DNA of 5,316 nucleotides from a virus (IMGVR_UViG_3300022758_000038); one strand, 5' to 3'; positions 2,793 through 4,646 are shown, counted from the stretch's first letter. Made by a program: numbers and translations. Notes: generated from the letters alone by a model not told the origin.

Positions 2793-2827
2793 CTGGGGCC
2801 CTATTTCCTTGATGTATAGGGCCCCAG
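2793..2827 (+). other. GC-rich hairpin with a 12-bp perfect stem, CTGGGGCCCTAT / ATAGGGCCCCAG, and an 11-nt loop, immediately 3' of VP2. It abuts the -35 element of the downstream promoter.
   Basis: Bases 2793..2804 are the exact reverse complement of 2816..2827. No U-tract follows, so it is not a canonical intrinsic terminator. Confidence 0.6.
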
Positions 2828-2856
2828 TGACACCACACCTCTGTGTGTGGTATAAT
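2827..2856 (+). promoter_or_regulatory. Sigma70-like promoter: -35 GTGACA (2827..2832), an 18-bp spacer, an extended -10 TGgTATAAT (2848..2856) and a consensus TATAAT.
   Basis: A perfect TATAAT hexamer sits at 2851..2856, preceded by TGn. The upstream hexamer matches TTGACA at 5 of 6 positions. The predicted transcription start is about 17 nt upstream of ATG 2881, just before the SD site. Confidence 0.5.
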
Positions 2857-2865
2857 GGCCCTGAG

Positions 2866-2873
2866 AAAGGAGG
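2866..2873 (+). promoter_or_regulatory. Shine-Dalgarno site AAAGGAGG, 7 nt upstream of ATG 2881.
   Basis: Near-consensus SD site with the correct spacing. Confidence 0.6.
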
Positions 2874-2880
2874 TACCGTT

Positions 2881-2988
2881 ATGAAGCTCTGGAAATTGCT
2901 TGTGCTTATTTTCTTTGCCTGGTTTCTTTTTGGCAATGGCTGGGCTATGATACTCGGTCTTATTGCAGTTTTTCTTGGAGGTGCTTGA
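2881..2988 (+). CDS. Small hydrophobic membrane peptide of 35 aa, MKLWKLLVLIFFAWFLFGNGWAMILGLIAVFLGGA. It is a candidate single-gene lysis or membrane protein. It was missed by the ORF track because of its size.
   Basis: ATG start with a strong SD site and its own promoter. The N-terminus is cationic (K2, K5), followed by an uninterrupted stretch of about 28 hydrophobic residues broken only by GNG. The stop TGA 2986..2988 lies 1 nt before the TTG 2990 start of Rep. Confidence 0.45.
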   Translation: MKLWKLLVLIFFAWFLFGNGWAMILGLIAVFLGGA

Positions 2989-2989
2989 T

Positions 2990-4078
2990 TTGTCTTGTTA
3001 TTACCCTCTCATTGGAATACCTAATGGTGTGAACCCTAACGGAAAGACCCACTACGCCATCCGTCCTTTTAAGGACTCTGTGTGGGAAGATCTCCAGTTT
3101 CGGCCCCCGCTTCAAGGCCCCGCCGTCAAGATCCCGTGCGGAAAGTGCATAGGTTGCCGCCTGGACTACTCCCGCCAATGGGCTAACCGTTGTATGCTTG
3201 AGGCCCAGTATTATCCTCCCGATCAAGTTTGGTTTGCTACAATTACTTACAATGACAAGTATGTTCCTCGTGTGACTTCCACGGATCCTGAGACCGGCAA
3301 GCAGGCCCCCGCCCTTACTCTTCGGAAGCGTGATTTTCAACTCTGGATGAAGCGGCTCCGCCGCCATTTTCCGGAAACTAAGATTCGTTTTTTTGCCTCT
3401 GGTGAGTATGGATCCGAGACTTTGCGGCCGCATTATCATGCTATCTTATTTGGTCTACCAATTCATGACTTGGAGCCTTATGAAAAGTCCGGAAATTTTC
3501 AACTTTATACGTCAAAAAGTATTGCAAAAACATGGTCGAAGGTGTATAATAATAATGACCTCCGAGATACAAGCAAGGATAGTTATGCTCCTCTTGCATT
3601 GGAGACATGGGTTGAAGGTGATTTGACGTATGAACCGTATGGCAGAATTGTATTATCCCCTTGCAGTTGGGAAACCTGCGCTTATACTGCCCGTTATACC
3701 GCCAAGAAATCCAACACCTTCTTCCCTCAGTTTTTCGAGTCGTTTGGACTCGAGGCTCCGTTTACCCTCATGTCTCGTCGGCCTGGTATAGCTGGCCAGT
3801 ATTACCAGGATCACCCGGAGGTTTACGATTATCGCTATATCAATATCCCAGGCCAGGAAGGAGGCATTAAGTTTACAGTCCCTCGATACTTTGATCGGCT
3901 CCTCGAAAAAGAGGATCCCGAGGCGTTGGCGCGCATGAAGGAGATCCGTCAGAAGATTGTAACTGAGCTGGACAAGGAGAAGGACACAAAGACAACGTAT
4001 GGTACAAAAAATCGTTTGGAAGTAGAAGCTCGTCAGAAAGAAGCTGTTGCTAAGATGTTAAGGAGATCTGCTATATGA
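2990..4078 (+). CDS. VP4: Replication initiator protein VP4 (HUH rolling-circle endonuclease, phiX174 A-like), 362 aa from TTG 2990. Alternative starts are GTG 2981 and TTG 2963, the latter as in the ORF track.
   Basis: RCR motifs are present: motif I FATITY (3233..3250), motif II HUH in RPHYHAILFG (HYH at 3431..3439), and motif III CAYTARYTAKK with paired tyrosines Y-x3-Y then K (3683..3706). There is also an N-terminal CGKCIGC cysteine cluster. No in-frame ATG exists upstream of the conserved N-terminus SCYYPLIG. GGAGG at 2977..2981 lies 8 nt upstream of TTG 2990. Confidence 0.85.
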   Translation: MSCYYPLIGIPNGVNPNGKTHYAIRPFKDSVWEDLQFRPPLQGPAVKIPCGKCIGCRLDYSRQWANRCMLEAQYYPPDQVWFATITYNDKYVPRVTSTDPETGKQAPALTLRKRDFQLWMKRLRRHFPETKIRFFASGEYGSETLRPHYHAILFGLPIHDLEPYEKSGNFQLYTSKSIAKTWSKVYNNNDLRDTSKDSYAPLALETWVEGDLTYEPYGRIVLSPCSWETCAYTARYTAKKSNTFFPQFFESFGLEAPFTLMSRRPGIAGQYYQDHPEVYDYRYINIPGQEGGIKFTVPRYFDRLLEKEDPEALARMKEIRQKIVTELDKEKDTKTTYGTKNRLEVEARQKEAVAKMLRRSAI

Positions 4079-4254
4079 GTCGATTTGAAGTTGTTTATGA
4101 TTCGCTTTGTTCTCTTCGTGATGAGTATTTCGCTAAGTCCAGTGCTGAGTCAGATGATTCTCTTTCTGAATTTTATCTTGGTCGTGCTGGTGCTTATGCT
4201 ATTGCTTGTCTTGCTTTAAAGGAGGCTATTGATTATGAGAAAAAGAGCCAGTAA
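4075..4254 (+). CDS. Small acidic hypothetical protein of 59 aa, MSRFEVVYDSLCSLRDEYFAKSSAESDDSLSEFYLGRAGAYAIACLALKEAIDYEKKSQ. It may be VP5-like by position.
   Basis: Its ATG overlaps the Rep stop (ATGA, 4075..4078). AGGAG lies 9 nt upstream. The ORF is absent from the track only because it is shorter than 60 aa. Confidence 0.45.
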   Translation: MSRFEVVYDSLCSLRDEYFAKSSAESDDSLSEFYLGRAGAYAIACLALKEAIDYEKKSQ

Positions 4255-4345
4255 AGGTGATAAGGCTAAGTTCCGTCGTACTGCCGTGAAGGCCAAGAAG
4301 ATTAATATTGATCCGTATATTCCTAGAGGAGGTATTTCTTTGTGA
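4235..4345 (+). CDS. VP8: Small highly basic DNA-binding protein of 36 aa, MRKRASKGDKAKFRRTAVKAKKINIDPYIPRGGISL (VP8 / phiX174 J-like).
   Basis: 13 of the first 23 residues are Lys or Arg. ATG with AAAGGAGG 9 nt upstream. The size and composition are typical of microvirus ssDNA-packaging J/VP8 proteins. It overlaps the preceding ORF by 20 nt in a different frame. Confidence 0.6.
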   Translation: MRKRASKGDKAKFRRTAVKAKKINIDPYIPRGGISL

Positions 4346-4351
4346 GTGGTT

Positions 4352-4387
4352 GTGAGTCGCCTCACGCTTATTGTTTTGGTATTTTTT
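4352..4387 (+). terminator. Weak terminator-like element: a GTGAG/CTCAC stem of 5 bp with loop TCGC, followed by a T-rich run (TTATTGTTTTGGTATTTTTT).
   Basis: A short inverted repeat at 4352..4365, then a T-rich tract up to 4387. It is preceded by a TGTGAGT direct repeat (4341 and 4351). The stem is short, so function is uncertain. Confidence 0.3.
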
Positions 4388-4400
4388 GGAGGTATATTAA

Positions 4401-4646
4401 ATGAATGTTTTTGTCTACTCTATGCGTGACATTAAGTCTGACTTTATGGCTCCTACCTATAGCAGTAACGATGCTGTTGCTATGCGCAATTTTGAGTCGG
4501 CTATTGAGCAGTCGCATGATGTGCTGTTTACTCATCGCTCTGATTTTCAGCTTTTCCGCATTGGTTCTTTCGATACTGATACAGGTATTTTGACCCCTGA
4601 GAAACTTCCTGTTCTCATTAAGGATGGAAAGGATGTTGTTGGTTGA
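4401..4646 (+). CDS. Hypothetical protein of 81 aa.
   Basis: ATG with GGAGG 8 nt upstream. Codon usage matches the other genes (T-rich third positions). The stop TGA overlaps the next ORF's ATG (TGATG at 4644..4648). Confidence 0.6.
   Translation: MNVFVYSMRDIKSDFMAPTYSSNDAVAMRNFESAIEQSHDVLFTHRSDFQLFRIGSFDTDTGILTPEKLPVLIKDGKDVVG

Follow-up and report, generated by a model that had tools for sequence, protein, structure and literature searches.

A conserved candidate membrane-peptide gene in a replaceable slot between VP2 and Rep of a gokushovirus

The window analysed here, a stretch of 5316 nucleotides (nt) from the virus IMGVR_UViG_3300022758_000038, is a circularly permuted gokushovirus genome with a terminal redundancy of 127 nt and a unit length of 5189 nt. 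Between VP2 and the rep gene (VP4) it carries a small open reading frame (mini-ORF) on the plus strand, which starts with ATG at 2881, stops with TGA at 2986–2988 and encodes a 35-residue product, MKLWKLLVLIFFAWFLFGNGWAMILGLIAVFLGGA. The comparative evidence indicates that the mini-ORF is an unannotated membrane-peptide gene under selection, in a gokushovirus slot that is conserved in position and replaceable in sequence. We regard its being a real membrane-peptide gene as nearly certain. As to its role, the best-supported reading, which we hold tentatively, is that the peptide is the membrane-acting lysis effector of the phage; most plausibly the mini-ORF would be the missing lysis factor of gokushoviruses. 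The mini-ORF is without annotation in both GenBank relatives checked, including the nearest GenBank record to the window, Gokushovirus WZ-2015a KT264754 (86% identity).

Conservation, rather than the single sequence, is what argues decisively for a real gene. In dinucleotide-preserving shuffles of the gap between VP2 and rep, 11.6% gave a hydrophobic ORF of at least 20 residues preceded by a Shine-Dalgarno (SD) site, so that the single sequence is not decisive. Six distinct DNA variants of the mini-ORF have 4, 1 and 15 variable columns at codon positions 1, 2 and 3, respectively. The window and KT264754 differ at 10 synonymous and 3 non-synonymous sites in the mini-ORF, with a ratio of non-synonymous to synonymous substitution rates (dN/dS) of 0.06. 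Over all pairs dN/dS is 0.04–0.29, and the N-terminal half of Rep over the same genomes gives 0.02–0.08. A divergent member, L202 (MKFKHWLILLLLAWFLFGGGWYIILGLIAVFLGGA), has 69% identity, an hhalign probability of 99% and a dN/dS of 0.28. The family defined by these sequences, family A, is found in KT264754, in IMG/VR contigs and in metagenome contigs. A protein cluster search, for which the query was the 59-residue upstream-extended frame, placed it in two 90%-identity clusters with 43 members, and one variant occurs on 315 contigs. A preliminary description of this DNA had considered that the region might be merely the 5′ leader of VP4, with the ORF disrupted in close relatives; instead, every family-A genome examined and hundreds of contigs have the ORF uninterrupted, and most of the changes in it are synonymous. 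Its codon usage is like that of the structural genes, with T at 49% of third positions and a mean log relative synonymous codon usage of 0.27, compared with 0.21–0.29 for VP1, VP2, VP3 and VP5. The mini-ORF thus has the appearance of an expressed gene, more than a mere leader.

The product is predicted to be a single-helix membrane peptide. AlphaFold2, run with a seven-sequence alignment, gives one continuous helix over residues 3–32 with a predicted local distance difference test score of 91. The family-A peptide has a Lys-rich N-terminus followed by a hydrophobic helix of about 30 residues, and ends in GGA without a C-terminal tail. A small-residue face consisting of G18, A22, G26, A29 and G33 is conserved in the family. 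Searches of family A against Pfam, NCBIfam, PADLOC and PHROGs at permissive E-values gave no match, nor did a search of PDB, and a profile search of 1.84 billion representatives returned only its own cluster. Homology to phiX174 E was looked for in particular; Pfam gave no match for family A even at E ≤ 10, and none was found in PDB. No peptidase, lysozyme, amidase or holin domain was detected in any ORF of the window, and no spare enzyme-sized ORF in the related 5-kb genomes. The other small ORFs of the window are soluble, leaving the mini-ORF product as the sole membrane protein in a genome without a wall-degrading enzyme.

The interval is not reserved for family A. Sister phages whose Rep N-terminal halves are 92–98% identical carry an unrelated 35-residue membrane peptide, family B (for example MESLLVVALMFGLLWLTKNVLWKVIDFLRDIFGRR), in the same slot, bounded by the same hairpin and promoter (described below) and by the Rep start. 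The hhalign probability between the two families is 0.1%, and a common origin was rejected. Family B has an acidic N-terminus, a transmembrane (TM) segment and a basic C-terminus, a charge distribution opposite to that of family A. An A-like 38-residue peptide of L043 and L126 shows weak similarity (probability 12%), and homology is not claimed. A third state of the slot is seen in MG945869 (L002), which lacks the mini-ORF. It is exactly 108 nt shorter than the family-B phage MG945855 (L003) and about 95% identical to it elsewhere, and the SD region of the mini-ORF directly precedes rep and serves as its SD. The 108-nt difference (L002 5160–5200 against L003 5160–5300) extends from the mini-ORF start codon to the Rep start codon, which suggests excision or insertion by recombination between two similar SD-start contexts. 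A metagenome scan added 12 further loci of the clade, 10 of them with an ORF (5 of family A, 5 of family B); of the remaining two, one begins a third, partial ORF and the other is cut off at the start codon, and none is ORF-less. With family A, family B or nothing on near-identical Rep backbones, the slot has the character of a cassette.

The preliminary description proposed a search of related gokushovirus genomes for small hydrophobic ORFs in the VP2–VP4 interval, and such ORFs are common there. We scanned the VP2–Rep interval in 80 Rep-related IMG/VR contigs with a Rep identity of 37–99%, and it was readable in 67. An SD-preceded small hydrophobic TM ORF lies between VP2 and Rep in 44/67 genomes, and in 33/55 outside the clade of the window; in 8 of the 67 such an ORF is found only elsewhere. 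The majority are Type I peptides of 26–46 residues, beginning M-[E/D]-S and having a TM segment and a basic C-terminus. Their start falls within −11 to +15 nt of the VP2 stop in 27 genomes, often as an ATGA overlap. Family B is homologous to this widespread post-VP2 set (hhalign probability 96%, E 2e-9). The Type II peptides, basic at the N-terminus and with GG[A/G/V] as their last residues, include family A and the peptides of L126, L134 and L144. Nearly all of them abut Rep, and that of L144 ends 52 nt before it. In other lineages conserved soluble ORFs of 52 or 57 residues abut Rep, yet VP2 is still followed by a Type I peptide. TM peptide and Rep leader can thus be separated, which argues against the peptide being a mere leader. 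The soluble ORFs, whose stop abuts or overlaps the Rep start and which gave no family match, may be Rep regulators. Those of 52 residues (MRPRLVRYYGPDYDNLKHG...) occur in L053, L054, L058 and others, and those of 57 residues (MLLKDLLVVNKNWSEDS...) in L022, L025, L033, L050 and others.

The signals around the mini-ORF look like those of an expressed gene. An extended −10 element, TGgTATAAT, lies at 2848–2856, and TGnTATAAT is present in every clade member. The SD site AAAGGAGG at 2866–2873, 7 nt 5′ of the ATG, is kept in relatives. In a promoter scan the mini-ORF site ranked top in the window, with 11/12 matches plus the TG; promoter-like sites as a class are not enriched in the window (8 found, 6.4 expected). 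The preliminary description had located the ORF, its SD, the −10, the −35 and the Rep TTG correctly, and its near-consensus promoter-like site, its phage-like codon usage, its sizeable intergenic gap (the VP2–Rep gap, about 205–208 nt, is the largest of the window) and its genome free of recognisable muralytic enzymes are likewise borne out. Its −35 calls for qualification. GTGACA at 2827–2832 is listed by the promoter scan, with a spacer of 18 nt to the −10, while its conservation stems from the invariant flank of the upstream hairpin. Since this motif is kept where the promoter is elsewhere, its conservation is no evidence of promoter function.

Downstream, the mini-ORF is closely fitted to rep. 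Its stop and the Rep TTG at 2990 are 1 nt apart, and the Rep SD, GGAGG at 2977–2981, lies within its final codons (Leu-Gly-Gly), 8 nt 5′ of the TTG. The TTG is consistent with the alignment of the Rep N-terminus MSCYYPL with the Rep starts in 60 relatives. In all relatives the stop is 0–4 nt before the TTG or ATG of Rep, some of them having the two codons joined as TGAATG. The Rep SD falls within the final codons in both families, as CTT GGA GGT in family A and as GGA AGG AGA in family B (GGAAGGAGA, encoding G-R-R), and such dual coding is also seen in L043, L051 and L134. The coupling to Rep expression proposed in the preliminary description is matched by this anatomy. The promoter activity of the site, a shared mini-ORF/rep transcript and the dependence of Rep on mini-ORF translation are inferred from that anatomy, and the coupling is probably real, as a secondary property.

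The genomic context is that of a temperate phage, found as a prophage in many gut metagenome contigs. An exact-sequence look-up located the peptide on bacterial contigs of 11–155 kb, on which a complete prophage lies between two halves of rep. The prophage order is the Rep C-terminal part, small ORFs, VP5, VP3, VP1, VP2, the mini-ORF and the Rep N-terminal part. The window aligns to both ends of six prophages (L026–L031), and the overlap is a 19-nt core, the attP core GCAAGGATAGTTATGCTCC at 3573–3591 on the plus strand in rep, near codons 195–201. The split-rep order is also seen in ten further loci (L115–L124). As judged from these junctions, the phage is temperate and integrates inside its own rep. 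The attL site is a perfect palindrome, GCAAGGGG-CGTTATGCT-CCCCTTGC; the att site does not resemble dif, and no integrase gene is present in the phage. In 16 prophages every phage gene is intact. The possibility that these are degraded prophages retaining the ORF was rejected: antisense ORFs were called over VP1 in some loci, but VP1 itself is intact in 16/16. In the lysogen the promoter site, the mini-ORF and a truncated Rep (Rep′) form an intact, outward-facing unit next to attR. Rep′ retains the HUH motif and loses the Tyr motif; behind the promoter it could act as an immunity factor or autorepressor.

The host is likely Gram-positive. Its flanks (L026–L031, L034, L115–L124) have a GC content of 56–65%, compared with 47.6% for the phage, and a gene for an SLH-domain wall protein follows attR wherever the flank is long enough to show it. 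A GTDB-representative metagenome-assembled genome labelled 'uncultured Collinsella sp. UMGS1339', a label that is uncertain, shares the junction and the SLH gene; a literature search for UMGS1339 found no mention of it. Gokushovirus prophages in Gram-positive gut bacteria are uncommon, with only a few such cases reported (PMC9239249).

Several lines of evidence favour the mini-ORF product as a lysis effector. It is the sole membrane protein in a genome without a wall-degrading enzyme, and this interval keeps small TM peptides even between deeply diverged 5-kb genomes. One peptide is displaced by another, unrelated one in the slot, as in the lysis (sgl) genes of single-stranded RNA (ssRNA) phages, which show rapid de novo turnover (PMC7693330). 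Other microviruses place lysis-associated genes in a comparable interval: accessory peptidase genes lie between VP1 and VP4 in other microvirus families (PMC9239249), and between VP2 and VP4 in some Alpavirinae (PMC3394797). Finally, the lysis gene of gokushoviruses is unknown (PMC7062461, PMC3394797). The operational criteria for sgl genes are at least 25 codons, an SD and a TM domain (PMC7693330); the mini-ORF has 35 codons, the AAAGGAGG site and one hydrophobic helix, and no muralytic domain is found in the genome.

The peptide would insert in the cytoplasmic membrane as a functional analogue of single-gene lysis proteins. It might bind the membrane step of cell-wall precursor supply, or it might oligomerise via its small-residue face and collapse the membrane potential; in a Gram-positive host the loss of membrane potential would release autolysins. 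Gene dosage would control the killing. As integration splits rep, the lysogen has a single copy of the gene; after excision Rep would be restored, the replicative-form copies would multiply and the peptide output would reach a lethal level. A broader and somewhat more speculative proposal is that the TM peptides of the VP2–Rep slot are the lysis genes of gokushoviruses in general, a positional cassette of interchangeable, unrelated single-helix peptides whose lethality is gated by integration in the temperate clade. In the window this cassette would contain family A; elsewhere it would contain family B and the widespread post-VP2 homologues of family B. Integration would split rep, hold the dosage at one copy and leave a catalytically dead Rep′, which may sit on the origin-overlapping promoter.

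A number of observations weigh against a lytic function. Family A has no homology to any known lysis protein in the databases and the profile search named above. An exact natural ORF-less lineage exists in MG945869, so that the mini-ORF may be dispensable, and 15/67 genomes are without a small TM ORF by the survey criteria. At least 16 prophages, on host contigs of 11–155 kb, carry an intact mini-ORF together with its near-consensus promoter and SD, and a potent, constitutively expressed lysis protein would kill the lysogens. The prophage context shows that single-copy carriage of the mini-ORF is tolerated, and the reply by dosage gating is itself inference only. The same objection holds for any lysis gene of a repressor-less temperate microvirus. 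Most ORFs with TM domains in the ssRNA-phage screen were non-lytic in E. coli (PMC7693330), and the T-rich third codon positions make chance hydrophobic ORFs easy in this genome. It is because of the ORF-less lineage and the surviving lysogens that the lysis reading is held at less than even strength. Thus, of the proposal in the preliminary description, a lysis or membrane-targeting peptide, the genuine membrane-peptide gene stands, and lysis is left as a reading without homology to phiX174 E or a known family. The phiX174 E-like architecture that was also proposed does not hold, as the charge distribution is reversed, with a basic N-terminus and no C-terminal tail.

Two other functions come next in weight, each a minority reading that we consider equally unlikely. 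The peptide could be moron-like, expressed constitutively from the prophage end to protect the lysogen or modify the envelope, for example by blocking the VP2-pilot DNA delivery of superinfecting microviruses. The mini-ORF resembles a moron in having its own promoter-like site, a position at the prophage end and a variable presence among relatives. The phage is temperate and keeps promoter, mini-ORF and Rep′ intact at the attR-proximal end; the slot is cassette-like, with the family present tracking the VP1/VP2 module type; a natural lineage (MG945869) does without the ORF; and cells carrying a gokushovirus are immune to superinfection through an unknown mechanism (PMC7062461). However, homologues of family B persist in genomes whose Rep identity falls to about 40%, where as a rule they are coupled to VP2 in the structural operon and do not lie at a prophage end; in 5-kb genomes this would be unusual behaviour for an accessory exclusion gene. 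A peptide is kept by all other clade members examined, about 20 distinct sequences, and no similarity to known defence or exclusion proteins was found. The alternative of another membrane role, be it a phiX174 K-like burst-size or replication-site factor, a tether for Rep or the replicative form, or a cofactor of VP2 delivery, draws on the position of the mini-ORF directly 5′ of rep with its stop abutting the rep start, and on the VP2 coupling of Type I peptides in 27 genomes. The ORF-less lineage and the 15/67 genomes without a peptide would fit a helpful, non-essential factor, and in the phiMH2K record an overprinted ORF is already classed with 'E and K'. Yet there is no positive evidence for any specific role, and the replacement of B by A with opposite charge orientation argues against a specific partner such as VP2 or Rep.

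The remaining explanations are much weaker. The size and hydrophobicity of the peptide are like those of type I toxins, and a small membrane toxin could serve as an addiction or abortive module stabilising the prophage or carrier state. A promoter-like site on the minus strand at 2936–2908 could drive an antisense RNA, but it is weak (9/12, −10 GAAAAT) and falls within coding sequence that is conserved; the searches matched no toxin family, and with no evident antitoxin the strong SD and promoter would prove lethal. We consider a toxin improbable. Still less probable is a pure cis-acting leader ORF that tunes Rep translation from the weak TTG while its peptide is functionless. The anatomy of a coupling leader is present, with the stop 0–4 nt from the Rep start, the Rep SD inside the ORF, different soluble ORFs of 52 or 57 residues abutting Rep in other lineages, and the mini-ORF SD region serving Rep directly in MG945869. 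The peptide itself, however, is constrained: it is under purifying selection at a dN/dS not far removed from that of Rep (0.04–0.29 and 0.02–0.08), its TM character is kept in two unrelated families, and a TM peptide still follows VP2 where the Rep-abutting ORF is soluble. Nor does special mRNA structure sequester the Rep start, since the fold is no better than that of shuffles (z = −0.33), and masking of the start was accordingly rejected. Least likely of all is a chance ORF in a T-rich intergenic leader. The proportion of shuffled gaps yielding such an ORF and the abundance of alternative-frame hydrophobic ORFs in the genome speak for it, but the conservation described above, namely third-position-biased variation, low dN/dS, intactness on hundreds of contigs and codon usage like that of phage genes, effectively refutes it.

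Returning to the lysis reading, one close known system is phiX174 E, the MraY inhibitor of Bullavirinae. Like the mini-ORF product it is a small single-TM peptide of an endolysin-less microvirus, and like the mini-ORF it is expressed without temporal regulation. A helix-perturbing G-N-G cluster in the middle of the family-A TM segment loosely recalls Pro21 of phiX174 E. The two differ in that E has 91 residues, is overprinted in the scaffolding gene D and is oriented N-out/C-in with a basic cytoplasmic domain, whereas family A, with 35 residues, is free-standing in an intergenic gap, is basic at the N-terminus and lacks a tail. In architecture, family B and the post-VP2 peptides come nearer to E than family A does. 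The Sgl proteins of ssRNA phages, such as the 37-residue MurJ inhibitor LysM, are similar in size and satisfy the same discovery criteria, and among their close relatives unrelated peptides replace each other as in the gokushovirus slot. They belong to another virus realm, whereas the phage of the mini-ORF is a temperate single-stranded DNA (ssDNA) phage, and its peptide is a putative lysis effector.

Other small hydrophobic proteins offer parallels to the rival readings. phiX174 K and phiMH2K OrfN, the latter annotated 'similar to E and K', are microvirus proteins encoded beside or within the replication gene, in this respect like the mini-ORF. K is non-essential, which would fit the natural ORF-less variant MG945869. 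K and OrfN are overprinted in other genes, whereas the mini-ORF occupies a promoter-proximal slot of its own; no sequence similarity was found, and their functions are poorly defined. Type I toxins, small holins and prophage exclusion peptides are likewise of 30–60 residues with one TM helix, and morons share with the mini-ORF a location at the prophage end behind their own strong promoter. The toxins and holins differ in that here neither an antitoxin RNA nor an endolysin partner was found, and Pfam, NCBIfam and PADLOC gave no match.

Upstream of the mini-ORF, and overlapped by its promoter-like site, lies an origin-like stem-loop on the plus strand at 2793–2827, with a 12-bp stem (CTGGGGCCCTAT / ATAGGGCCCCAG), an 11-nt loop containing an invariant CTTGAT and a predicted fold of −23.5 kcal/mol. 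Among 28 unique gokushovirus sequences the stem covaries with compensatory changes at 8 positions and the loop CTTGAT(GTA) is invariant; the stem length varies from 12 to 15 bp, and the element is conserved down to about 40% Rep identity. The 3′ flank is the invariant GAGTGACACC. The flank at 2825–2834, CAGTGACACC, which contains GTGACA, is the same in 28/28 sequences, and the motif (C/G)AGTGACACC, which includes GTGACA, flanks the covarying hairpin. Genomes that have their promoter over 100 nt further downstream also possess the hairpin and flank. The element at 2793–2834 is probably a Rep nick site or origin. It resembles the phiX174 origin core, CAACTTG^ATA. A second predicted hairpin, ACCACAC / GTGTGGT at 2832–2851, fills the promoter spacer from GTGACA to TATAAT. 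In relatives its arms covary (CCACGT/ACGTGG, CCATAC/GTATGG, CACCGG/CCGGTG and CACCC/GGGTG), and it could be an ssDNA structure, a promoter control or part of the origin. Rfam has no relevant family in the region.

Every gene of the window is on the plus strand. VP1 (143–1828) matches Pfam Phage_F, the VP2 pilot protein (1888–2784) matches PHROG pilot-protein families, and Rep (2990–4078) matches Pfam REP_ORF2-G2P. Rep is followed by small ORFs (4075–4345), VP5 (4401–4646), an ORF of 50 residues listed between VP5 and VP3, and VP3, from 4798. The region from Rep to VP5 (4075–4400) is a second cassette zone among close relatives, in which a 59-residue acidic ORF, a J-like basic ORF of 36–38 residues and ORFs of 44, 57 or 71–73 residues are variably present. 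Just 3′ of the VP1 stop, a 13-bp GC-rich hairpin at 1839–1866 (GCCCCCTGGG.../...CCCAGGGGGC, −27 kcal/mol) is followed by TTTT; this hairpin, which the consensus scan missed, probably serves as a terminator or attenuator separating VP1 from VP2. Synonymous diversity, about 0.2 on average, falls to 0.05–0.12 over VP2 codons 229–298 (2575–2784), at the VP2 3′ end, and over Rep codons 157–200 (3458–3589), just upstream of attP. These two stretches may reflect overlapping signals or recent recombination.

Other hydrophobic frames were considered as lysis genes and set aside. In the +1 frame of VP5 an overprinted hydrophobic ORF of 62 residues (4405–4593) shares the SD of VP5 and stays open within the immediate clade; over the overlap the synonymous diversity of VP5 is about half the genome mean. 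It was rejected, as L115 has lost its ATG, its residues vary freely, and early stops close the frame in 71/71 more distant genomes, the close relatives L002 and L003 included. The hydrophobic ORFs in the VP1 +1 frame (1128–1367) and at 4085–4219 are unsupported and are expected from the T-rich third positions; the VP1 +1 frame has few stops anywhere.

Gokushoviruses are among the most abundant ssDNA phages of the gut and ocean, and their means of lysing the host has been in question ever since phiX174 E was found to be missing from them (PMC3394797, PMC7062461). The present analysis gives a candidate set for this function, consisting of family A, family B and the broad post-VP2 family of 26–46 residues (33/55 genomes outside the clade of the window), all of them without annotation in the two GenBank relatives checked and of a size that can be synthesised and screened. 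If lytic, they would be new 'protein antibiotics', probably active on Gram-positive gut bacteria; if non-lytic, they would represent a novel class of membrane peptides expressed by prophages of the smallest temperate DNA phages known.

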